A stretch of DNA of 23,022 bases, taken from IMG/VR virus record IMGVR_UViG_2671180821_000008, positions 1 to 23,022 of that record, one strand, 5' to 3'. The stretch is from a virus (Duplodnaviria; Heunggongvirae; Uroviricota; Caudoviricetes). Shown one piece after another: positions 699 to 23,022 of the stretch. A program made the position numbers and the translations under genes. Numbering within the stretch: the stretch's first letter is position 1; every line of letters begins with the position of its first letter. The notes under the pieces were generated by a model that had not been told where the DNA came from, ran no database searches, and saw only the letters and a list, made by a program, of their open reading frames with translations.

Positions 699-768
699 TG
701 GAGCACCTCAAAAACACCATCATACACTAAATCAGTAAGTTGGCAGCATCACCTCATTCGTCTGTTCC

Positions 769-1275
769 TTAAATCTTCCAGGAAATTTCTGCATTGCCGT
801 CAGCATCACCGGCACCTGTGAATTCAGCGTTGGTCAGCACCACGTTTTTGCCACTGACTGACGTGGACATGAATCCACCCAGCGGCACTTTGATGGATTC
901 ATCAGTGGAGACGACAACGTATACCGGATCGCCTTTTTTGATAGTGCTGGCATCAAAATCAGAACCGAGATTAACGGTCACGTAGCCACGCTTCATGGCG
1001 TCGCCCGGGAAGTTCTTGCCTGTTCCCACCTGGCGAACCATGTCCGGCTGCGACGTGGTCGGATAAGGGCGCACGTAGATCCCCTTCACCTTGTCTGCGG
1101 TATCACCATCTGCCAGCGGCACGAAAAAACCGTCATCATCGTATTTACCAGCCAGGCCATAGGCAGCGAAGGCGTTATCGGATTTAAGGACCACCGGTTC
1201 GACGGTTAAGTCCTGCGGGCGAGAGACAGCCCCGGCAATGCCAACAGGCATCCGGTACAGAAATACATTATTCAT
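769..1275 (-). CDS. phage head-associated structural protein of unknown role (possible decoration/scaffold protein)
   Basis: 168-aa ORF directly downstream of the protease/scaffold-like gene in the same operon (3-nt spacing, AAGGG SD); stop lies 16 bp from the IS1 end. Function inferred from position only. Confidence 0.45.
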   Translation of the reverse strand: MNNVFLYRMPVGIAGAVSRPQDLTVEPVVLKSDNAFAAYGLAGKYDDDGFFVPLADGDTADKVKGIYVRPYPTTSQPDMVRQVGTGKNFPGDAMKRGYVTVNLGSDFDASTIKKGDPVYVVVSTDESIKVPLGGFMSTSVSGKNVVLTNAEFTGAGDADGNAEISWKI

Positions 1276-1278
1276 TTT

Positions 1279-2499
1279 TTACCCTTTACGGTTTGCCCAG
1301 AATTCAGCGTTTTGTTTGTTCAGGGAAGCGATACTGGTCATGCCCATGTTTAGGCGCTGTGCATCGCCGGTGGTGGCGCGGGTGTTTCGCCCTTTGGCAA
1401 CCTCAGACACGGCATTAAACGCCATGTCGACCGATTGTTTCGGTAATTTGCGGATATCCGCATCACCGACTATCTGGCGAACCAGCGTTTTGTCAGCAGA
1501 AGCCAGAACCTCGCGTTTGAACGCGGTCGGTTTCATCTTACGGCTCAGATCGATACCCGGAACGATAACTTCGGCACGCCAGGCTGAGTCACCAGTAATC
1601 GTGGTTTCCTCTTCATCGTCCTCGCCGTCACCGGTCGGATTATCGTCAGGCTTATTATCGTTATCGCCCGTGGCATTTCTTTCCAGCTTAGCCAGCAGGG
1701 CTTTCAGTAATGTTTTGAGGTCATCATCACTGTCGCCGGTTGGATCTCCGCCCATCTCTGGTGCTTTGTCCGGTAGTGGTTGCTGCGGGGACAGGTTGAT
1801 GTTGAGATTAACGCCCTGCGGCAAATCCCCCTCATCTCCTGTAACCGATGCGGGAGCCGACTCCACCAGTTCGTTCATGGTGTCGGCATCTCCTGTCTTG
1901 ATGGCCGCACGCATGCGGTTCCACCAGTTTTTCTTTTGATTTGCCATTGTGTCTCTGTCTCCAATTGCACAACGATTTCCGGCTCTGCCTTTAGGGACAA
2001 GAGCCACATGGTTTCCGGTAATATCGACCTGCTCGGCTTTACCTGGCTCGGTCTGCTCGTACTCCGCGTCATAGCCGCACGACACTTCGCGCAGGCCATC
2101 TTCGATAAGCTGAATGGCGCTTTCGTCTTTGACGATAAGGTCAGCCAGCATCAAATCAGACTGCTCACCCGTCCCGCGCCGGACATTCTGGAGGTGCCCG
2201 ACAGCAAGCTCTTTCCAGTTCTCGGGATTTACCAGCCGCACATTCCCGTTTTCATCTTCAGGATGCAGGATCGTGATGCTCATCCCTTCGAATGAGGCAA
2301 GCGTGGCCGGATGGAATACCTGCTCAGGAGAACGCGTGACGACTATTTCACCGAACTTATCGGGTTTCAGTTTTGGCAGGTCATCAGCACCATAGAGCTG
2401 CTTACCTGTTCGTCCTATCGGCACGTCTTTGCACAGCAACGAGCCGTCAGCCAGGCGGTATCGGGTTTCCCCGAGCCTGGTCTCAAAAAAGTATTTCAT
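1279..2499 (-). CDS. putative prohead protease / scaffolding-like protein (DUF2213-like, from memory)
   Basis: 406-aa ORF with a long acidic low-complexity linker (…DSDDDLKTLL…GDGEDDEEETT…) typical of scaffold proteins; lies between the Mu F-like head gene and a structural gene. Confidence 0.5.
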   Translation of the reverse strand: MKYFFETRLGETRYRLADGSLLCKDVPIGRTGKQLYGADDLPKLKPDKFGEIVVTRSPEQVFHPATLASFEGMSITILHPEDENGNVRLVNPENWKELAVGHLQNVRRGTGEQSDLMLADLIVKDESAIQLIEDGLREVSCGYDAEYEQTEPGKAEQVDITGNHVALVPKGRAGNRCAIGDRDTMANQKKNWWNRMRAAIKTGDADTMNELVESAPASVTGDEGDLPQGVNLNINLSPQQPLPDKAPEMGGDPTGDSDDDLKTLLKALLAKLERNATGDNDNKPDDNPTGDGEDDEEETTITGDSAWRAEVIVPGIDLSRKMKPTAFKREVLASADKTLVRQIVGDADIRKLPKQSVDMAFNAVSEVAKGRNTRATTGDAQRLNMGMTSIASLNKQNAEFWANRKG

Positions 2500-2502
2500 G
2501 GG

Positions 2503-3285
2503 TTATGCTGCCCTTTTCATTGCGAATGGAACGCGAACAAACACGATCTCTTTATAGCAGCGGCAGTTTGGCAGCTCGCCCGCGTGGCCGGTCATGCCGT
2601 CCAAAGTTGGAGGTGAATCCCAGCGGACGAATTTACCTTTCATGTGATCGTGGGAATCTCGGACATCGCCATCATCGGCTGTACGCCAAATATAACCATC
2701 CGAGCCAATAGCTATCGCTCGGGCCATATCCAGCGCGCCCGTTGCTCTTCCCAGTTCCGTTCGGGCAATCAGATCGGCCCTAGACTTAGCAACATCGCCG
2801 GTAGATGCAATCTCTTTAGCAAACTGCTCCGCCCGACCACCGGTGACAACAGCCTCTATCGCTTTGTTCTGGATGTCGTACACCCTGTCTGCGGCCTCGA
2901 GAGGCAGAGATTTGATGTACTTGACCTGTTCGGCGATGATGGATTGCATCACCTGGCCCACAGGAGCGCTTTCCACAAGATTGCGGAGCTCGCGACTGAT
3001 GTTCTTGCTGTGTTGCCGCCAAACTTTCTCGTTCTGCCGGGTTAGGTCCGCAGTAAAGTTTTCCGCGACCTTTGTCGCCCAGGGGGTGATGATTTCACTG
3101 TAACGCTCCAGCGCCGCAATAATTTCCGTGATACTGTCATTTGAACCATCGTAGCGACCATTTACGATGTCTCCGACCGCCCTCGCTATCCTGCGTAGGC
3201 TGGTTCGATACCGGATTTCCGCCTGACGGCTCCTGCGGTTCGTCATCAGGTTCGCCGATGCCGGGCGGCGCTTCATCTTCGGCAT
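2503..3285 (-). CDS. phage head morphogenesis protein (Mu F / SPP1 gp7 family)
   Basis: 260-aa ORF immediately after the portal gene; C-terminal ...DSHDHMKGKFVRWDSPP...NCRC motif region resembles Mu F-like minor head proteins. ORF start overlaps the portal 3' end by 149 nt, so the true start may be internal. Confidence 0.6.
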   Translation of the reverse strand: MPKMKRRPASANLMTNRRSRQAEIRYRTSLRRIARAVGDIVNGRYDGSNDSITEIIAALERYSEIITPWATKVAENFTADLTRQNEKVWRQHSKNISRELRNLVESAPVGQVMQSIIAEQVKYIKSLPLEAADRVYDIQNKAIEAVVTGGRAEQFAKEIASTGDVAKSRADLIARTELGRATGALDMARAIAIGSDGYIWRTADDGDVRDSHDHMKGKFVRWDSPPTLDGMTGHAGELPNCRCYKEIVFVRVPFAMKRAA

Positions 3286-4603
3286 TCTCGATGTCCTCGT
3301 CGGTAATGGATGCCCCGATGCCGGTTACGTCAGAATTTTCTCGCAAATCAGTCATAGCGGCTTTCAGTGTCATCAGACCATCACCCAGCGCCGTACTGAT
3401 TGCGTTGGTGGTGTTTAACGCCACCGTTGAGCGATCGACATCAGACATTTGCCAGAGCGGGTTAAACTCAAACGTGAAATCGTCCGGCAGCGGCTTGCCA
3501 AGTTCCGAACGATGCATGATGTCCAGTATCCGCCGCACCGGAAGACGTAAACGCCTCTCCTGCAACGAACTGATGCGATCGTAATAGTTGGCAAGGTCTG
3601 CATCACCGGTAGAAAATCCTTTCGGGGACTGTCCGAACAACCGCACCAGTGGGATACCAACAGCGCCACTAATCTGTTCTACAAACTGCGAAAGGATGTC
3701 ATCCAGACCACTGAAGCTGTACTGATGGGTTTCAAACTTATCCCGCGAGTCCATGAGCGTCATGCCTTCATTACTCTGGAACTGTCGAATCAGGTCGATA
3801 TTCTTCAGCAACGCTTCATACGCAGGACCACCAAGTGCGATAAGCTCGCGTAGCTTCTCCACGCTGTAGGTACGCAAATGCGCCTTGTAGACCAGCTGCG
3901 CCGCGCCGACAGTAGCGCTGTCGAACGCGGTAAGACGATCCCAGATACGCTCTACAACCGACATTCCCCATTCGTTCTCGGTCATCTTCTGCTGAAATGG
4001 CAACGTGACGCCATCAAAGCGAATCAGGCGACTGTGATGAATGCGCCAGGCAGGAATTCCCGTTGCTGTGGTCACCACATCGTAAAACTCAGGTTTACCC
4101 AGGTCCGGCCCCATATCTTTAATGCGGCGGGTCAGTGCCGGGTCGACCATCCAGCGGTCGAGCGGGAGAATCCCCTTAAACTTGCCCTTACCGATGGTTT
4201 CGGGTCGCAGCGGGGTCATTGGTGCCTACCCCTCAATCATGATGAAACCCACCGCGCCGCCGTAGAGGCGCGACCATTTCAGCACGTCATTCAGCGCATC
4301 CCAGATTTGCAACTCATCCAGTTGTGATTCGAGAATGCCACGATCTTTTGCATCAATTTCCGAAGTGATGCGAATGCCTTTGCGGGTCATATCATCCGGG
4401 ATAGCATCGACTGCTTCGCCGATGATCTAGGATGAACGATAGGACCATTCCACCAGCATGCGGTTACGACTGGTGAAATTAGCCCGGTAGGTGGATGCTG
4501 AGTGCTGGTTAGGTGTCTGCATCCCTACGCGGGCAATAAAATTCTCATAACCATCAGCTGTGGCCTGCACAGTTCGCCGCAGGGCTTGTTTGTTTCGTGC
4601 CAT
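3137..4603 (-). pseudogene. portal protein gene interrupted by two in-frame amber codons (intact C-terminal ORF 3137..4219)
   Basis: ATG at 4603..4601 overlaps the large-terminase stop (ATGA). The frame stays open and protein-like (MARNKQALRR...EWSYRSS * IIGEAVDAIPDDMTRKGIRITSEI...GFIMIEG * APMTPLRPE...) apart from TAG at 4429..4427 and TAG at 4228..4226; no frameshift. Position between terminase and Mu F-like gene indicates portal. Confidence 0.65.
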
Positions 4604-6114
4604 CAGGCCTGTCTCCCCAGCTGTTCCCAGATATCCAGCGATGTATCGATTGGCGCGAAGGCCATAATGAATGCATCAGCAACGTTTGGTGACGGTATCT
4701 CGCGTTTTGCGAGGTCTTTTTTACTTTCGACCATCACACGTCCGTTACGGTCGAAATCACGATGAGGTGTTGTCAGTTCCAGTTTCAGCTTTTCAAGCAA
4801 CGGACAACGAGAATCTATGCTGATCAGCTCATCCACAGGATACTGTTCTCCGTTGTTAATGGCGTTAAACGTATTTCTGAAACGGTCAGCCACCAGCCAC
4901 CATGCCTGAGCCTTAAGATTTGCGAAAAAGTCTTTGTTGGGGATGCCGTTGTACTCGTCATCTGGCTCATGCACACCAGCACCGGCGTTAAACCTCTGGT
5001 AATTCACACGTCGCGCGTATGCGTTCTCGCTCTTCCGGTCAGCGTTAATTTCAGAGAATTTAGCACCGGCAGACGCACCAACACCGATAGAGTCGTAAAC
5101 AATATCTGCTTCACGCTCCAGCGCCGCCTGATAAGTACGCTGGCAGCTCTTCAGTAATTCATCTTCTTTGGCCTTCCATTCGTCGGCCCAGAAAACAACG
5201 GATCCGTGACGGTAAACGTTAGCGCACTTATCTGTACCACTGTCAGCCACGTCAAAGCCAATACGCTTTCTTCCACTGGGTTCGAAATTTAACGTTTTGT
5301 GCGCATCCACTGCGGCTTCTATCCAAGACAGTTTGATGATTGCCGCATCATCATCAGACTCCGGAACGCCCTCATACACATGTTTAAAACCATCCGGATC
5401 ACGGCGTCGCGCCGCGTCGATAACCTTAAGCATGGTGTCAGACAGAAACGGATTTTCGTCATAGTTAATTTTGCGGATGAGAGTGCCTTCGGGCGGATCA
5501 ACAACGAAGTTGCGCCAGACGAAATCAGTAACAAGTCCGGGGTTGAATATGAACCAGCATTCCGAACCCTCTTTACGGATCGTTGGCTCCAGAATTTTCC
5601 ACTGGTATTCCGTCAGTGCGTGGGCTTCTTCCAGCCACAACACATCGATCCCCTCCAGTGACTTAATTTCTTCGATGTTGCGCCATAATCCATAAAAAAC
5701 AAATTCCGAGCCAGTAACCCGGTTAATGATTTTGTTGTTCAGAATACGGAAACGGTGCCGCAGACCAAACCTGTCTATCTGAATTTTGAGCAGGGTATAC
5801 ACCGACTCTTCGATTTTATTCTGGATCTGACGGGCACAACAAAAACGCAGGGTGTATTTATTCGACAGAAATATGGCAATGCCAGCGGCATCCCATGATT
5901 TTGACGATGACCGACCACCATAAAGCACTTTGTTACGTGCCCGCATAGTCCAGAAACTACGTAAAGCCGGATTCAGCGTCGGTTTGGATGTCAGAGTAGA
6001 AGTCATTGAGGTCACGCTCTCCATTGCCATCATCAATACCTGCATCACGGCGAAGACGATCAGCCTCCAGAGACACCTTATCAGTGGCGGCCTTGCGGTA
6101 GGCTGTATCAGCAA
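4603..6114 (-). CDS. terminase large subunit (PBSX/Terminase_3-like, headful-type)
   Basis: 503-aa ORF with ...RARNKVLYGGRSSSKSWDAAG... (deviant Walker A) and a nuclease-like C-terminal half. ORF start overlaps the small terminase gene by 158 nt; internal ATGs at 6033 (AGGT SD) or 6006 are more likely true starts. Confidence 0.85.
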   Translation of the reverse strand: MLIQPTARPPLIRCLWRLIVFAVMQVLMMAMESVTSMTSTLTSKPTLNPALRSFWTMRARNKVLYGGRSSSKSWDAAGIAIFLSNKYTLRFCCARQIQNKIEESVYTLLKIQIDRFGLRHRFRILNNKIINRVTGSEFVFYGLWRNIEEIKSLEGIDVLWLEEAHALTEYQWKILEPTIRKEGSECWFIFNPGLVTDFVWRNFVVDPPEGTLIRKINYDENPFLSDTMLKVIDAARRRDPDGFKHVYEGVPESDDDAAIIKLSWIEAAVDAHKTLNFEPSGRKRIGFDVADSGTDKCANVYRHGSVVFWADEWKAKEDELLKSCQRTYQAALEREADIVYDSIGVGASAGAKFSEINADRKSENAYARRVNYQRFNAGAGVHEPDDEYNGIPNKDFFANLKAQAWWLVADRFRNTFNAINNGEQYPVDELISIDSRCPLLEKLKLELTTPHRDFDRNGRVMVESKKDLAKREIPSPNVADAFIMAFAPIDTSLDIWEQLGRQA

Positions 6115-6721
6115 ATATTTTTCCTACCGTCGCAAGCGTGCCAACGATGGACTCAATACGAACTGTATTGCGCATCATTGCTTTCTCGGCGGCGCTGATA
6201 TTTTCAATCAGCATCTTCCTTTCCTGGTCCCCATTAGCATCTTCCAGCGACACCAACCACCGACCAATATTCTCTGCAGCGACAAGGTTGTTAGCACGAA
6301 GGCGAAATAATTCGTCCTCGAGCGTCAACGCTTTAGCGTCCTCTATCACCTCATCTTTGAGCAGAAGGCGACGGGCATAACCACCGTGTTTTAATGCCTG
6401 CTGGTTACCGGGTTGGAATGGGTTAGTCGGGGGATCGGTACGCATTCCGCGTATCGGTTTCGTATCCGGTGTAGATTCTGTTTTTAGTTGCGTACTTTTT
6501 TGTGTAAGGCCAGTAATGGCAGGCTTTCTGCTGGTACGCACTTTCCTTTTTTGCGTACCATTTTTGCAAACCTGCGTACCGCCACTGCGTGCCCAACCAA
6601 GCTTTTTGGCCCTCTTCCTGATAGCCCCTTCTGTAACGCCGTATTTCTCGCCTATATCACGGAGGCTAAGGACTCCGGCCCGGTATGCCGATTCGATGGC
6701 CTCCCAGTCCGGTTTTGCCAT
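5957..6721 (-). CDS. terminase small subunit
   Basis: 254-aa ORF directly upstream of the large terminase; N-terminal HTH-like segment (LSLRDIGEKYGVTEGAIRKRAKKLGW) and basic region; TAG stop. Confidence 0.6.
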   Translation of the reverse strand: MAKPDWEAIESAYRAGVLSLRDIGEKYGVTEGAIRKRAKKLGWARSGGTQVCKNGTQKRKVRTSRKPAITGLTQKSTQLKTESTPDTKPIRGMRTDPPTNPFQPGNQQALKHGGYARRLLLKDEVIEDAKALTLEDELFRLRANNLVAAENIGRWLVSLEDANGDQERKMLIENISAAEKAMMRNTVRIESIVGTLATVGKIFADTAYRKAATDKVSLEADRLRRDAGIDDGNGERDLNDFYSDIQTDAESGFT

Positions 6722-6918
6722 GATTATGCTTCCTGTGATTTACTGTTATCGCTGCCTGTCACAATAGGTTGCTTTAATTCTTCCTCATCACTCACTCCTG
6801 CGACGCTCCGTGGCAGGGCCCCCCACAGGAGTACCTTGTAAATGTAAGGTGTTTAAGCCTAAATTAAGTCGTATCACGGTTAAATAGCAAAGAAAAATTC
6901 ACAGAAGGAAAGACATTG

Positions 6919-7428
6919 ATGGAGTGGATAAATGCTTTGATGAACTATTTTGTACTTCATCCATATCGCCTATGGGGGCTTCTTTTTATAATAGCGTTCA
7001 CAAAATCCACTTTACTCATTTCGGCGATATTGCCACCAGCATCAATTATGATGGCCACTGTAATTACAGTCAGCAAGACGACTCTTTCACCATGGGAAGC
7101 TGGAATCACGGTCATGAGTGGCGCATGGTGCGGTACTATCGTTAATTACCATCTTGGTATAATAATTGGGCATATCCCTCAACTTGCATGTATAATATCA
7201 AGCCGTTCCAATACAATAGAACGGGTTCGCCTTCAGTTGCAAAATAACTCTGTGTCAATACTTTTCACTTCGCGCTTTATCGCCGTGCTGCGTTATATTG
7301 CTCCTTTGGTGGCAGGAATGTTGCAACTTCATCCAGTGAAAGTGTATACAGTGAGTCTGATTTCAGCTGCTAGCTGGTCAGCACTTTATGTTGGTAGTTT
7401 TAGCTTCGTGTTGCCTTTTTTTAGCTAA
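6919..7428 (+). CDS. YqaA/DedA-superfamily-like inner membrane protein (phage moron)
   Basis: About 169 aa, multi-pass hydrophobic; motifs ...SGAWCGTIVNYHLGIIIGH... and ...FTSRFIAVLRYIAPLVAGMLQL... follow the pattern I recall for E. coli YqaA. GAAGGAAAG SD 8 nt before ATG 6919. Opposite strand to the flanking phage genes, in a visibly AT-rich segment. Confidence 0.5.
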   Translation: MEWINALMNYFVLHPYRLWGLLFIIAFTKSTLLISAILPPASIMMATVITVSKTTLSPWEAGITVMSGAWCGTIVNYHLGIIIGHIPQLACIISSRSNTIERVRLQLQNNSVSILFTSRFIAVLRYIAPLVAGMLQLHPVKVYTVSLISAASWSALYVGSFSFVLPFFS

Positions 7429-7516
7429 ACTGCCCATAAAAAGCTCTTGCGAATCCAGCTTCCCCCATTCCTCTGACAACAGAATCTGATTTGAAGGATA
7501 ATGAGTAAAATTACCG

Positions 7517-7987
7517 CTACCCCCCAAGGCATTGGATCCTGATGTACTCCTGAAGCATTCTCAATGCTGTCTGGTCGCTGATGATTCCGTCCCGGATACC
7601 GAGAACGTTTCGTCCAGCAACTGGAGAGAGTTCGACGGTGGCATCATTGCCCATGCCGGAGGCGCTGGAGGTTTCGGCTGAGGATGGCACAGGGCATTTT
7701 CCTTTGACGAGCACCCGACCACCATTATCAAGCTTGCGCCGAAGAGCATCATTTTCAGCTTTCGCATCAGCTAACTCCTTCGTGTATTTAGCATCGAGTG
7801 CATCAGCATCACGCTGGCGCTGCTGCATGTCAGTAATGGTTGCGTTCGCCAGCTTCAGTTCTCTTGCGTTTTTGTCGCGCTGCTCTTTGTAGGTAATGGC
7901 GTTATCACGGTAATGATTAACAGCCCATGACAGGCGGACGATGATGCAGATAACCAGAGCGGAGATAATCGCGGTGACTCTGCTCAT
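7517..7987 (-). CDS. Rz: Rz i-spanin
   Basis: [49 protein letters not shown]... closely matches lambda Rz N-terminus; ATG overlaps the endolysin stop (ATGA). Confidence 0.85.
7561..7767 (-). CDS. Rz1: Rz1 o-spanin lipoprotein, embedded in the +1 frame of Rz
   Basis: [21 protein letters not shown]... with lipobox VVGC and proline-rich segment [11 protein letters not shown], like lambda Rz1. Confidence 0.75.
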
Positions 7988-8481
7988 TGCTGCCCCCACA
8001 AACAGACTTCACGCTCAATCTCACGACGGGTCATCAGCCCTTTCCATTGCTTACCGCCAGCATATGTCCAGCGACATAGCTGGTCACATGCGCCTTTGAT
8101 ATAGCCCTGGTTTATTTTGCGAAGAAGCGTCGATGTTCTGAAATTGCCAGCGCCCACGTTGTAAACGAACGAGTAAAGAGCGCCGCGCGTTGTTTCCGGT
8201 ATATCGACTTTGATGTACGGGTTAATTTGTCTGGCGACAGTGGCAAGGTCTTTATTCAGGAGAGCTTTGCATTCTGCTTCGGTATACGTTTTACCAGGCA
8301 TGATGTCTTTTCCGGTGTGTCCGTGACATACAGTCCATACACCAATGATATCTTTGTATAGTATGTAGCTGACACCTTCCAGACCATCGTTACCACCTGG
8401 GCCAGTGATTAACACAGATGCTATAGCAACAGCCCCGCCACCAATAGCAACTGCAACAGCCTTGCGTAATGATGGCGACAT
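7984..8481 (-). CDS. R: SAR endolysin (phage 21 R-type lysozyme)
   Basis: 165-aa [42 protein letters not shown]... with N-terminal signal-anchor-release segment and lysozyme core; near-identical to phage 21 R as recalled. Confidence 0.9.
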
Positions 8482-8594
8482 TATTCACCTCTCGCAGCCT
8501 TACTAGACTGGCCCCCTGAATCTCCAGACAACCAGTATCACTTAAATAAGTGATAGTCTTAATACTAGTTTTTAGACTAGTCATTGGAGTACAG

Positions 8595-18845: not shown

Positions 18846-19202
18846 ATGGAAATAAAACCAGAAGATGAGTTAAGCAATATCGTTTTATTTCCGGTAAAAG
18901 AGGATGACCCTCGTAATCAGGTTAATTTTCTTTATGAGCCATCGGAAAGACCATATTGCCATCACGCCTCTGTACGGGTTGACGAAAAAGAGCGTCAGGT
19001 CCGCTGTAAAATCTGCGGTGCGGTTGTGGAGCCGTTTGACTGGATGCTCTCTGTGGCAAAAAGAGAAACCAGACTGGCAGATGATGTAAGGCTATTGCGC
19101 CAGGAGGAACAGGAAAGGCGGAGAAATATAGAAAAGCTGATACAGATTGAGCGTAACGCGAAAGCGCGGATACGCAGGGCGACAAAATCCAGAACTGAAT
19201 AA
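18846..19202 (+). CDS. hypothetical phage protein with zinc-ribbon-like motif and basic coiled-coil tail
   Basis: AAGGAGAGG SD before ATG 18846 (the ORF frame is open from 18789); C-HH...C-KIC cysteine/histidine cluster; C-terminal RLLRQEEQERRRNIEKLIQIERNAKARIRR. Confidence 0.45.
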   Translation: MEIKPEDELSNIVLFPVKEDDPRNQVNFLYEPSERPYCHHASVRVDEKERQVRCKICGAVVEPFDWMLSVAKRETRLADDVRLLRQEEQERRRNIEKLIQIERNAKARIRRATKSRTE

Positions 19203-19349
19203 TTAAATTTAGCACTGTTAAAAATTTAATCCTTAACCGGAGGGATTTCTGCACCCTCAAATCATCAGGAGACCACCCGAAAGGGCGGGGAGCAGTCACA
19301 CATCTGTTTCCGATAGCCCCGTTCTAATGCTACACTCTTTGATATTTTT

Positions 19350-20036
19350 ATGACCCCAATAAACATATTTATGACAGTTGCTGATTTCAAACGGCCCAAA
19401 TTGGAGCTCCCAAACGGGGCAAACAAACTACTACTGCACTCTTGCTGTGCTCCATGTTCCGGTGAGGTGATGGAGGCGCTTCAGGCCTCGGGAATCGACT
19501 ACACCATCTTTTTCTACAACCCGAACATTCATCCTCAGAAAGAGTATTTAATTCGTAAGGATGAGAATATTCGCTTTGCTGAACAACACGGCGTGCCGTT
19601 TATTGATGCTGATTACGACACAGACAACTGGTTTGAACGAGCCAAAGGAATGGAATGGGAGCCCGAACGAGGGATCCGTTGCACCATGTGTTTTGACATG
19701 CGTTTTGAGCGGACAGCGCTGTACGCCGCTGAAAATGGTTTCAGTGTGATCAGCAGTTCACTGGGCATTTCACGCTGGAAAAATATGCAGCAGGTTAACG
19801 ACTGTGGGCGGCGAGCCGTCGCGCATTATCCGGGCATGGTGTACTGGGATTATAACTGGCGCAAGCAGGGCGGCTCGTCCCGTATGATTGAAATCAGCAA
19901 GCGCGAAAAATTCTATCAGCAGGAATATTGTGGCTGTGTGTATTCTCTGCGCGATACCAATCTACACCGCAAATCTCAGGGACGCCCTCTTATCAAAATT
20001 GGTCAACTCCACTACGGTAAAGAAGAGAAGGAGTGA
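19350..20036 (+). CDS. queH: QueH-like epoxyqueuosine reductase (DUF208 family)
   Basis: Motifs [40 protein letters not shown] and C-terminal EYCGCVYS match the QueH/DUF208 signature as I recall it; start codon uncertain (19350 or 19371). Confidence 0.6.
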
Positions 20037-20221
20037 TTTTATGGGGCACCTTTCTGATTGATTTCATATTGGCGAGGTAAGTAGAATGACTGCGGGTGCT
20101 TGAGGCTATCTGCTTCAGGCATGAACACCAAAAGGCAGATAGAGAAAAGCCCCAGTTAACATTACGCGTCCGGCAAGACGCTTAACATTAATCTGAGGCC
20201 AATTTCATGCTTTGCACATGT

Positions 20222-20250
20222 AGGTTAGCCTCTTACATGCCGAAAGGCAA
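20222..20250 (-). promoter_or_regulatory. candidate antisense (sok-like) promoter opposite the hok leader
   Basis: On the minus strand: -35 TTGCCT (20250..20245), 17-nt spacer, -10 TAACCT (20227..20222); its transcript would cover the upstream in-frame ATG at 20207. Confidence 0.3.
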
Positions 20251-20263
20251 GGAGAAGCAGGCT

Positions 20264-20419
20264 ATGAAGCAGCAAAAGGCGATGTTAATCGCCCTGATCG
20301 TCATCTGTTTAACCGTCATAGTGACGGCACTGGTAACGAGGAAAGACCTCTGTGAGGTACGAATCCGAACCGGCCAGACGGAGGTCGCTGTCTTCGTAGA
20401 CTACGAATCCAGGAAGTAA
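20264..20419 (+). CDS. hokD: Hok/Gef-family membrane toxin (HokD/RelF-like)
   Basis: 51 aa MKQQKAMLIALIVICLTVIVTALVTRKDLCEVRIRTGQTEVAVF..., near-identical to HokD as recalled; AGGAGA SD. Confidence 0.85.
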   Translation: MKQQKAMLIALIVICLTVIVTALVTRKDLCEVRIRTGQTEVAVFVDYESRK

Positions 20420-20496
20420 GAGTGACCGGGCGGGGAGCTGATCCCATCCCCGCCCACCTCTGATGTGTCAGGCATCCTCAACGCACCCGCACTTAA

Positions 20497-20539
20497 CCCG
20501 CCCATCGCTGTGATCTCTCAGCGTTTCGGCGGGTTTTTT
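20497..20539 (+). terminator. rho-independent terminator downstream of hok
   Basis: Stem CCCGCC (20497-20502) / GGCGGG (20528-20533) with inner GCTG/CAGC helix, followed by TTTTTT (20534-20539). Confidence 0.5.
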
Positions 20540-20559
20540 GTTGTTTATTTCCGGTGAAT

Positions 20560-20587
20560 TTGATTCGCGCACCTTCGCAGATAGAAT
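20560..20587 (+). promoter_or_regulatory. candidate sigma70 promoter (TTGATT, 16-bp spacer, TAGAAT)
   Basis: Near-consensus hexamers at 20560-20565 and 20582-20587, upstream of a 14-codon uORF and the 95-aa ORF. Confidence 0.4.
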
Positions 20588-20668
20588 CGACTCACTTAAG
20601 TAGCGCGCAGGGAGAAGAGGGATGGACCCCGAACAGGGGAGAGCTATTTATCTGGAAGGATTCTGAAG

Positions 20669-20956
20669 ATGAAAATCGAAGAATTGCGTGAAATTTTTAG
20701 TGAAAATGGCCTCTATGCTGTGCGCGTTGAGAATGGAGCGATTGTCAGCCATTGCCGCATTAGATGTTTGCAATCTCAACAAAGGAAGAGCGGTGCTGTG
20801 TTATTTTATTTTTGTAATGGACTTCTGACGGACGGTTTTATTTTGCGTGAGGACGAATTTGTCACATCATTACGGGTTTTGAAAGAGATTGGTTTTAAGG
20901 CTGGTTTTCTGCTTTTGCTGAAGAATAAACTCATCTACAATCTTGAGCAGGATTGA
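20669..20956 (+). CDS. hypothetical protein (position corresponds to rem of Qin-like prophages)
   Basis: 95-aa ORF with GGAAGGA SD; preceded by uORF 20622-20666 (MDPEQGRAIYLEGF) ending 2 nt before its ATG; no recognisable motif. Confidence 0.4.
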   Translation: MKIEELREIFSENGLYAVRVENGAIVSHCRIRCLQSQQRKSGAVLFYFCNGLLTDGFILREDEFVTSLRVLKEIGFKAGFLLLLKNKLIYNLEQD

Positions 20957-20994
20957 ACTCCTGCTGTGTAACACCGTGCCACCGGAGAAAGCCG

Positions 20995-21301
20995 ATGGCA
21001 CATATACAACTGGTCAAACAAACCTCTTCCGGATTACTTCTCCCGGCGACGCCGGAGAGTTGCGATTTTCTGCATCAAATCAAAATAGGTGAGTGGATAC
21101 ACGCAGACTTTAAGCGTGTGTGTAACTACGCATTCCACAAGCGTTTTTTCAAACTCCTGCAACTGGGTTTCGATTACTGGACTCCGGTCGGTGGGGCGAT
21201 CACGCCTCGCGAACGAAAACTGGTGTCCGGTTTCGTTGATTACCTGTGTGAATCAGTAGGCCGGGAACATACGCCAGCTCTGAGCGAAGCCGCAGAGCAA
21301 T
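20995..21301 (+). pseudogene. hypothetical nin-region protein, 3' end truncated by IS600
   Basis: GGAGAAAG SD before ATG 20995; MAHIQLVKQTSSGLLLPATPESCDFLHQIKIGEWIHADFKRVCNYAFHKRFF...; reading frame runs straight into the IS600 end at 21302. Confidence 0.45.
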
Positions 21302-21344
21302 TGAGGTGTACTGGCAATAGCGGACACTACCATTTGTTCTTTTT

Positions 21345-22163
21345 TTAAGCAGCCATCTGATGATATTTTTCCCTGAAGGCTGCCGGGGAGATATTCCCCA
21401 GACGAGAGTGACGACGCTGACGATTGTAGAAAATCTCAATGTATTCCCGTATTACTGAGATGGCTTCATCCCGGTTATTAAAACGATAGTGGCTCAGGCT
21501 CTCATTTTTCAGCGTTCCCCAGAAGCTTTCCATCGGAGCGTTGTCGTAACAGTTACCTTTACGCGACATTGATGTTTTCAGACCAGACTGCTCCTGTATG
21601 ACCCGGTAATCGTATGCGCAGTACTGTGAACCTCGATCAGAGTGGTGGATTAGCCCGGCAGGTGGGCGCTGGCTCCTGAGCGCCATAAACAGGGCTTTAC
21701 CTGTCAGCTCTTTTGTCATGCGCTCTCCCATGGCGTAGCCGACAATTTCGCACGTATAAACATCTTTGATGCCAGCGAGGTACAACCATCCCTCCTGTGT
21801 GGCAACATACGTCAGGTCCGCCACCCAGACCTGATTTGGTGCTGTAGGAGCGAACGTCTGGTTCAGCAGATTTGGCGCAACTGGCAGATTGTGGTTCGAG
21901 TTCGTAGTCGCTCTGAACTTGCGTTTCTGCTTACAGCGTAGCCTTAGCTCCTTACGAAGACGTGCCAGTCGGTCACGACCAACGATGATGCCATTCTCTG
22001 CCAGCTCCGTCTGGAGCCGCCGGGTTCCATATGTTTCGCGAGTGCGGATATGTGCCACCTTAATCTCCAGTTTTAGCCGCTCATCACTTTGTTTTCTGTC
22101 TGAGGGTTCATGCTGTACCCAGTTGTAATAACCGCTCCTGGATACACCAAATACCTGACACAT
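21345..22163 (-). CDS. insK: IS600 OrfB (DDE transposase domain)
   Basis: 272-aa ORF identical in translation to the 15701-16519 copy. Confidence 0.88.
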   Translation of the reverse strand: MCQVFGVSRSGYYNWVQHEPSDRKQSDERLKLEIKVAHIRTRETYGTRRLQTELAENGIIVGRDRLARLRKELRLRCKQKRKFRATTNSNHNLPVAPNLLNQTFAPTAPNQVWVADLTYVATQEGWLYLAGIKDVYTCEIVGYAMGERMTKELTGKALFMALRSQRPPAGLIHHSDRGSQYCAYDYRVIQEQSGLKTSMSRKGNCYDNAPMESFWGTLKNESLSHYRFNNRDEAISVIREYIEIFYNRQRRHSRLGNISPAAFREKYHQMAA

Positions 22164-22198
22164 CGCTTCAATGGGAAATTGTTGTCGCCATTGTTCGA

Positions 22199-22501
22199 TT
22201 AACGCGTATTTTTCAGCGACTCCTGTGCAAAATACGCTGTTGCTTTTTTTAATATATCTCGCTCAAGGCGAGCTTCATTTAACGCCTTACGCAGTTGCAG
22301 AATTTCAGATTCCAGTTCAGCCACCGTGCGGGAACCAGGAGTACCGAGCCCTTTTCTGGCGGCGGTAACCCATTGTCCTAAAGTGCCTTCAGGAAGAGAT
22401 AATCGGGAAGCGCCTTCACTGATCGAAAGTTGATTTTCAGGAACCGTTCTGACAGCTTCGGCTTTGAACTCTTTAGAGTAACGTTGGGTTTTTCTGCTCA
22501 T
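22199..22501 (-). CDS. insJ: IS600 OrfA (L20P variant)
   Basis: 100-aa ORF MSRKTQRYSKEFKAEAVRTVPENQLS... Confidence 0.88.
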   Translation of the reverse strand: MSRKTQRYSKEFKAEAVRTVPENQLSISEGASRLSLPEGTLGQWVTAARKGLGTPGSRTVAELESEILQLRKALNEARLERDILKKATAYFAQESLKNTR

Positions 22502-22566
22502 TATTAGCTCCTTCTGATGCCATTCTATTTCAGGAAGGAGTGTCCGTTAAACTCAGGCTACCTCAG

Positions 22567-23022
22567 TTCGGCCTTTGCATGGATCTTGCACTGGTAACAG
22601 GACAGCGCGAAGGAGATCTGGCGGCTATGAGATGGGAGGATATAAGAGATGGCAGGCTATACGTGGAACAACAAAAAACAGGGGCAAAAATTCGCATTTC
22701 TCTCCCCACCACGATTTCCAGATTGAATTTAACACTTGCCGATGTACTGGATAACTTGAAAAAAATAAACGGTAAAAACGAAAAGTTACTCGGAGGGAAG
22801 ACAGCCAGGACAATCGCAGCACAGTTCAGGATTGCCCGAGACACATCCGGATTGAAATGGGAAGGTGACCCACCGCCATTTCATGAAATCCGAAGTTTAT
22901 CCGGTCGCCTGCACTCAGCAGAAAAAGGCGGTGATTTCACTCAGGCGCTCCTTGGACATCGTTCATCCAGCATGACGGATAAATACCGTGACGGACGAGG
23001 GAGGGAATGGAAAGACATTTAA
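22567..23022 (+). pseudogene. int: lambda-type tyrosine integrase, C-terminal catalytic fragment only
   Basis: ...LALVTGQREGDL...LYVEQQKTGAKIRI...GDPPPFHEIRSLSGRL...LLGHRSSSMTDKYRDGRGREWKDI-stop parallels the lambda Int C-terminus (R-H-R-H-Y catalytic positions present); N-terminal two thirds absent, frame enters from the IS600 end. Confidence 0.8.

Follow-up and report, generated by a model that had tools for sequence, protein, structure and literature searches.

The open reading frame (ORF) at 19350-20036 of the window, the 23,022-nucleotide virus record IMGVR_UViG_2671180821_000008 (Caudoviricetes) analysed here at its full length, encodes a member of the QueH family of epoxyqueuosine reductases and lies in a lambdoid prophage. 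We consider it probable (about 0.8) that the gene supplies a working, B12-independent second enzyme for the reduction of epoxyqueuosine (oQ) to queuosine (Q), kept as prophage cargo and benefiting lysogens when corrinoids are scarce. In the proposed mechanism, QueH would act as a cobalamin-independent iron-sulfur enzyme, converting oQ to Q at position 34 of tRNA-Asn, -Asp, -His and -Tyr. Its gene is carried as cargo: a cassette of about 0.74 kb, complete in itself, that lies in the ren/nin-like region of Escherichia and Shigella prophages of the lambdoid (Rac/Qin) type. Lysogens could then finish Q synthesis under corrinoid scarcity, in the way that MetE backs up MetH.

In the queuosine pathway, QueA converts preQ1-tRNA to oQ-tRNA, and either QueG or QueH reduces oQ to Q (PMC10570037, PMC9508795). 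E. coli and Shigella possess tgt, queA and the preQ1 pathway, which supply the substrate of QueH (PMC9508795, PMC10570037). QueG is cobalamin-dependent (Frey 1988 and Miles 2011, as cited in PMC4646009). Since queG mutants of strain K-12 pile up oQ (PMC4646009), K-12 has no backup reductase. QueH was defined as a family (DUF208, PF02677, COG1636) by Zallot et al. 2017, as cited in PMC5372724 and PMC6461909, and has been described as the cobalamin-independent counterpart of QueG (PMC5615194, PMC11906303). The window protein is expected to catalyze the same reaction as QueG (YjeS, with cobalamin and a [4Fe-4S] cluster), from oQ34-tRNA to Q34-tRNA (PMC4646009, PMC10570037), but the two enzymes are unrelated in fold and cofactor. 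QueG and QueH are both retained and differently expressed in S. aureus, apparently providing cofactor-dependent flexibility (PMC13443448).

The gene was delimited as follows.

19350-20036, plus strand: ORF as first drawn, 228 amino acids (aa)
19371-20036, plus strand: queH coding sequence (CDS) with its likely true start, 221 aa, stop codon included, based on the PF02677 match and the PGAP start

The original prediction had recognized QueH/DUF208 from four motifs, all of which are found in the translation of 19350-20036. An eleven-residue cysteine motif occupies residues 27-37 of the 228-aa form, followed by FFYNPNIHP (54-62), RCTMCF (110-115) and EYCGCVYS (192-199). A profile search, the check it had proposed, gave a match to Pfam PF02677 (QueH) with E=1.9e-65 and 220.6 bits (gathering cut-off, 23.5 bits), covering profile positions 1-174 of 175. 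Thermotoga maritima QueH (7lc5) aligned with the ORF over the whole domain in phmmer (E=5e-22). Chance is excluded as the source of these two matches. An identical (100%) gene is present in E. coli FDAARGOS_944; its product, WP_012421537.1, bears the RefSeq/PGAP name "epoxyqueuosine reductase QueH".

The stop codon and frame first drawn were correct, whereas the start was probably placed too far upstream. Four lines of evidence converge on the second in-frame ATG, at 19371, 21 nucleotides (nt) downstream of 19350, as the most likely true start. PGAP places the start at the equivalent ATG in the identical FDAARGOS_944 copy. Of the 12 codons that change an amino acid among 84 Escherichia-clade copies, four fall within codons 2-6. 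Copies from Enterobacter and Scandinavium lack the first ATG, and the alignment of chromosomal homologues opens at residues 8-10. The start-codon context occurs twice, 21 nt apart, at 19344-19354 and 19365-19375 (ATTTTTATGAC / ATATTTATGAC). This repeat looks like a small duplication that created the in-frame ATG at 19350, found in Escherichia copies only, and with it a spurious N-terminal extension of 7 codons.

Residue conservation was assessed in an alignment of the window protein with T. maritima QueH and 80 diverse family representatives, chosen among the 150 cluster representatives with the best scores in a library search that matched 4755 clusters at E<=0.001. Residues C32, C33, C36, C111, C114, C194, C196, R110, N57 and N59 (228-aa numbering) are the majority residues of this alignment, and at none of the strongly conserved positions tabulated does the window protein depart from the majority. 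All three metal-binding cysteine motifs are present: CCxxC(D) in the N-terminal part, CxxC in the centre and CxC in the C-terminal part. Loss of conserved cysteines on alignment, which the original prediction had named as evidence against itself, was not seen, all seven family cysteines being kept. Work by Li and colleagues in 2021 is reported to have distinguished the cysteines that bind the cluster from those that bind an extra iron. The position of T. maritima Asp13 is a Cys (C36) in the window protein. A deviant active site at this position was considered and rejected, as Cys is the family majority there (68 of 82 aligned sequences).

The AlphaFold2 model of the protein had a mean predicted local distance difference test score (pLDDT) of 78 and a predicted template modelling score (pTM) of 0.80. 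When it was compared with the PDB using Foldseek, the top five matches were all entries of T. maritima QueH, whose structures are 7LC5, 7LC7 and 9DEU. Their target-normalised template modelling (TM) scores were 0.82-0.86, with root-mean-square deviations of 2.5-3.0 Å. The next matches, TtuA and LarE, share the adenine-nucleotide-alpha-hydrolase fold and had E-values 6-7 orders of magnitude weaker. Thus, the window protein has the end-to-end domain, cysteine set and predicted fold of chromosomal and T. maritima QueH. Its identity is 80-92% with the chromosomal QueH proteins from Enterobacter, Erwinia, Providencia, Proteus, Photorhabdus and Serratia, and only about 30% with the T. maritima enzyme; its C-terminal tail of about 25 residues is common to the enterobacterial relatives. 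Based on sequence and model, the ORF is best read as encoding an intact, functional QueH, and the family assignment of the original prediction is upheld.

The gene also appears to be maintained. The reading frame is full in all 84 Escherichia-clade copies, which comprise 21 nucleotide alleles and 8 protein variants, and only 12 of the 56 variable codons change the amino acid. The ratio of nonsynonymous to synonymous substitution rates (dN/dS, Nei-Gojobori method) between the window allele and other prophage alleles was 0.00-0.06, at dS of 0.09-0.18. Against the Enterobacter, Scandinavium and Kluyvera copies it was 0.02-0.04, at dS of about 0.9-1.5. These values indicate strong purifying selection on queH during prophage residence.

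The cassette was found in 995 of 5426 complete E. coli genomes (18%), nearly always as one chromosomal copy named QueH by PGAP. Carriers include O104:H4 C227-11, an O157:H7 strain, APEC O1, strain 042 and E. coli B. Database records also list the exact protein for Shigella sonnei Ss046 and further Shigella. In agreement with the premise that enteric hosts use QueG, queG was present in all 5426 E. coli genomes; therefore queH is always a second reductase and never a replacement. In E. coli, queG is thus a core gene and queH an accessory one. Typical QueH is encoded in the core chromosome, whereas the window QueH is encoded in a lambdoid prophage, beside QueG and not instead of it.

Among viruses, 187 IMG/VR contigs carry queH. 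A tblastn search of 50,697 GenBank phage records yielded a single credible cultured carrier, the temperate E. coli phage HannyBb (45 kb). The other records were discounted, being either unannotated faecal metagenome fragments or sequences of 280-380 kb that resemble bacterial DNA. The doubtful records include 'Acinetobacter phage MD-2021a' (328-379 kb) and 'Staphylococcus phage SA 1306 Kay' (283 kb). Such large QueH-bearing "phage" records look like chromosome fragments or a prophage plus its flank.

Comparison of loci delimited the mobile unit and its candidate expression signals.

19300-20042, plus strand: queH cassette, a homology block of about 743 bp shared among lambdoid prophages
19328-19336, plus strand: putative extended -10 element TGCTACACT (TGn followed by TACACT), 43 nt 5' of the ATG at 19371, proposed from its conservation
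19340-19348, plus strand: second putative element, TGATATTTT

The left edge of homology falls exactly at 19300 in 64 of the 84 Escherichia-clade loci, the right edge at 20042 in phage HannyBb, and a chromosomal copy from Enterobacter hormaechei matches window positions 19307-20043. Because these edges agree, the moving unit would be a block of about 743 bp comprising queH and some 70 bp upstream of the ATG at 19371. No terminal direct or inverted repeats of the kind expected for an integron cassette or a transposon were found at its flanks, where the only repetition is the 21-nt-spaced pair at the start codon. In Escherichia and Shigella, a DUF977 gene nearly always lies 5' of the cassette and hok usually 3' of it, while the immunity and replication modules differ between loci. 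This variation of modules around DUF977-queH-hok is the lambdoid mosaic pattern. Closely related prophages may have or lack the cassette, which sits as a discrete insert between their phage modules, as is usual for cargo genes.

One such difference was seen between E. coli B and BL21(DE3). In E. coli B-DolR (NZ_CP117044.1, 8662-10022 of the locus), queH lies in a Qin-like prophage adjoining rspB. BL21(DE3) (NC_012892.2, locus position ~31543/31544) has a clean 1,361-bp deletion at this site, with flanks 100% identical to E. coli B; what is lost is queH, a methyltransferase fragment and the last part of the DUF977 gene.

In the loci compared from outside Escherichia, queH had no phage neighbours of this kind. 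The closest relatives outside Escherichia come from Enterobacter, Scandinavium and Kluyvera (86-92% identity), followed by those of Erwinia, Serratia, Providencia, Proteus and Photorhabdus (80-86%). The chromosomal setting was inspected in E. hormaechei only. In CP170191.1 (7181-8690 of the locus), the closest non-phage copy (92% identity) lies directly 3' of a gene for a 234-aa tyrosine recombinase (Pfam Phage_integrase), and the pair is wedged between a gene for a FAD-oxidoreductase and the budRAB acetoin operon; it may be a mini-island. Since the nearest relatives in Enterobacter, Scandinavium and Kluyvera have no phage neighbours, the cassette appears to have been captured from an Enterobacteriaceae chromosome together with its native promoter.

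TGCTACACT is present, 43 nt from the ATG, in all 84 Escherichia-clade loci. Chromosomal copies (Enterobacter, Scandinavium, Kluyvera, some Erwinia, Sodalis and Acerihabitans) have TGCTACACT, TGCTACAAT or TGCTATATT at -37 to -44, and the bases flanking the element have diverged among these relatives. Because the element is shared with chromosomal copies, we infer that the cassette brings along an ancestral promoter, from which lysogens could transcribe queH without the phage early promoter. A generic promoter and terminator scan of 18700-20700 returned no more sites than shuffled sequence and nothing 5' of queH; it missed TGCTACACT because there is no good -35. A search of 18700-20800 with Rfam at a permissive threshold detected sok only, with no preQ1 or cobalamin riboswitch 5' of queH.

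What a second reductase could bring to a lysogen is suggested by the host. E. coli does not synthesize cobalamin de novo. Since the resident QueG depends on B12, a B12-sparing benefit is the most likely one. We infer that the enzyme is active in E. coli, that lysogens express it from the extended -10 element and that it spares B12. Several observations weigh against this explanation. No -35 element and no terminator for queH were detected in 18700-20700, and its GC content (0.46-0.52) is like that of the flanking genes, without island-like contrast. Given these features, queH may depend entirely on the phage early-right promoter for its transcription. BL21(DE3) lives without the cassette and with no obvious harm. 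An NCBIfam scan of the ORF returned no family at E<=0.001, so the RefSeq name must rest elsewhere; this missing match appears to be uninformative, as the library seems to hold no QueH model given that PGAP still names the protein QueH. We know of no fitness difference between oQ- and Q-tRNA in E. coli, which makes the benefit conjectural. Moreover, gut E. coli can import corrinoids, which weakens the argument from B12 scarcity.

A working QueH might serve the phage rather than the lysogen. It would then be transcribed from the early-right promoter after induction or infection, and would top up Q for the translation of phage mRNAs rich in NAU/NAC codons. The layout of the region fits such a role: queH is co-oriented with and directly 3' of cro, the replication genes and the DUF977 gene, with no terminator between them. 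The viable phage HannyBb carries the gene, and some queH prophages also bear tRNA genes, suggesting an interest in translation. However, non-phage chromosomal copies have the extended -10 element as well, which speaks for autonomous transcription, and queH is intact in the window although this dead prophage, scrambled by insertion sequences (IS), is unable to run a lytic cycle. The gain would also be small, since most tRNA is already modified within one lytic cycle, and cultured lytic phages lack queH. A lytic role is therefore unlikely. Much further from probable is a functionless passenger, a recently captured chromosomal fragment hitch-hiking beside the hok/sok stabiliser. The host already has QueG, an addiction module (hok/sok) adjoins the gene, and the clean 1,361-bp deletion in BL21(DE3) removed the cassette, all of which would suit a dispensable gene. 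Yet none of the 84 copies is broken, the set of catalytic cysteines is complete and the promoter-like element is conserved; the intact frames and the low dN/dS among prophage alleles (0.00-0.06 at dS 0.09-0.18) contradict a dead passenger.

The original prediction had suggested two roles, tuning of host tRNA modification and feeding of a 7-deazaguanine pathway. The former is in line with the B12-sparing role favoured here, while the latter found no support. In such a pathway, queH would contribute to 7-deazaguanine modification of phage DNA (dPreQ0 or dG+ type), or would counter a host system acting on 7-deazaguanines. Phages do modify their DNA with enzymes of the Q pathway (PMC6884629), and QueH shares its adenine-nucleotide-alpha-hydrolase-like fold class with QueC (a weak Foldseek match to 3bl5). 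The partners that were proposed as a check are absent, however. No gene resembling DpdA/Tgt, FolE, QueD, QueE, QueC or QueF was found among the 53 annotated features of the twin prophage in FDAARGOS_944 (described below) or among the window ORFs scanned with Pfam, and thus neither a DNA transglycosylase nor preQ0 genes. PADLOC found no defence-system match for QueH and three small neighbours. A role for QueH as a defence system was set aside for want of a PADLOC family match. The substrate is also unsuitable: oQ is made by QueA from preQ1-tRNA and, to our knowledge, is known only on tRNA. Hutinet et al. 2019 reported no QueA, QueG or QueH in the viruses and phage systems they analysed (PMC6884629). 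The known phage clusters (DpdA with FolE, QueD, QueE and QueC; Hutinet et al. 2019) likewise borrow from the queuosine pathway, but they take the early preQ0 steps together with a DNA transglycosylase, whereas the window prophage has only the last, tRNA-specific step (PMC6884629). A part in DNA modification is thus extremely improbable.

As B12-sparing cargo, queH can be compared with the 'morons' and auxiliary metabolic genes of the lambdoid nin region. Like them it is a discrete insert, present or absent between relatives, with a candidate promoter of its own. The other typical moron traits, an own terminator and a contrasting composition, were not found for queH in the scan of 18700-20700 and the GC comparison. 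In the papers searched, we found no tRNA-modification enzyme of this type described as phage cargo.

The window as a whole is a scrambled lambdoid/Rac-like prophage, whose intact twin adjoins ybhA in E. coli FDAARGOS_944. The blocks shared by the two are separated in the window by at least 5 IS insertions (IS3 family and IS110 family), and correspond as follows.

Window 754-8503, twin 32208-24459, inverted: head and lysis genes
Window 13983-15658, twin 15893-17568: immunity region
Window 16921-21301, twin 17564-21952: replication genes, queH, hok and DUF1367 gene
Window 22566-23021, twin 8968-8513, inverted: integrase

The twin's four tRNA genes (Ile, Arg, Thr, Gly) are lost here, a tRNA scan of the window having found none, and its Q-antiterminator region is also missing. 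The IS load and the rearrangements are in keeping with Shigella, probably the source of the window. Around queH, the following features were identified.

15657-16922, minus strand: IS3-family IS, left copy, with OrfA of 100 aa and OrfB of 272 aa (Pfam rve and HTH_Tnp_1)
17605-18351, plus strand: ydaV, a DnaC/IstB-like replication ATPase (Pfam IstB_IS21 and Bac_DnaA; PGAP ydaV)
18366-18788, plus strand: DUF977/Ren-like gene (Pfam DUF977, E=1e-33; PHROG 142, Ren-like exclusion protein)
18846-19202, plus strand: small hypothetical phage gene with a zinc-ribbon-like CxxC...CxxC pattern (WP_001343130.1; phrog_1621, unknown function)
20094-20419, plus strand: hok/sok type I toxin-antitoxin locus (Rfam RF01794 sok at 20094-20269, 117 bits, E=1.8e-27)
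20264-20419, plus strand: hokD CDS (Pfam HOK_GEF; PGAP hokD)
21301-22566, minus strand: IS3-family IS, second copy (same Pfam scan); homology to the twin prophage stops at 21301

The genes beside queH are those of a prophage, with replication genes upstream and hok downstream, as had been described from the sequence alone. A homologue of the DUF977 gene lies upstream of queH in most Escherichia-clade loci for which upstream DNA was available. The small gene at 18846-19202, between the DUF977 gene and queH, is found in this prophage lineage only, in a subset of loci. On the other side, hok/sok lies directly 3' of queH in most Escherichia loci; in HannyBb, an additional insert of about 370 bp separates queH from hok. 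A mok-like ORF starting at 20207 overlaps hokD, and the hok/sok locus is complete.

The two IS copies at 15657-16922 and 21301-22566 are direct repeats, 99.8% identical over 1266 bp by self-BLAST, and the second one truncates the DUF1367 gene, which starts at 20953. A third, partial copy (713 bp) lies at 13274-13986. The direct pair brackets a 4.4-kb segment containing the replication genes, queH and hok, in a layout resembling a composite transposon. Equally, recombination between the two copies could remove the segment.

Neither the enzyme family nor its chemistry is new, and this exact protein already has its name in RefSeq. Little notice has been taken of the route by which Escherichia and Shigella acquire queH, through lambdoid prophages, where it forms a compact, conserved and selectively maintained cassette that about one fifth of strains carry. 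A full-text literature search, in which the key QueH papers were represented second-hand, found no account of QueH in E. coli or Shigella prophages. Annotation of the family is uneven. The PHROGs family phrog_3217 is labelled "unknown function", and the queH product of HannyBb "hypothetical protein", whereas RefSeq names it QueH. The phrog_3217 profile opens at residue 34 of the 221-aa protein and omits the CCAPC motif; many phage gene calls seem to begin at an internal Met (MEALQ...), dropping this metal-binding motif.

Should the enzyme prove active, about 18% of sequenced E. coli, along with several Shigella lineages, would differ from K-12 in having an oQ-to-Q step that is free of B12. This trait would be moved by phages, and a tRNA-modification enzyme would join the list of prophage cargo. 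E. coli B, which carries queH, and BL21(DE3), from which it is deleted, form a natural pair. Q status acts on Shigella virulence through translation of VirF (PMC10570037); in the light of this link, the probable Shigella setting of the window is suggestive. We put forward, tentatively, that temperate lambdoid phages spread B12-independent Q maturation in E. coli and Shigella, a form of lysogenic conversion acting on the tRNA modification state. If this were true, lysogens would have Q-tRNA under corrinoid limitation, in B12-poor niches, during competition in the gut or inside host cells. Translation of NAU/NAC-rich genes could shift, including that of Shigella virulence regulators such as VirF; among virus-borne enzymes, QueH would be the first that is specific to the tRNA branch of queuosine synthesis.

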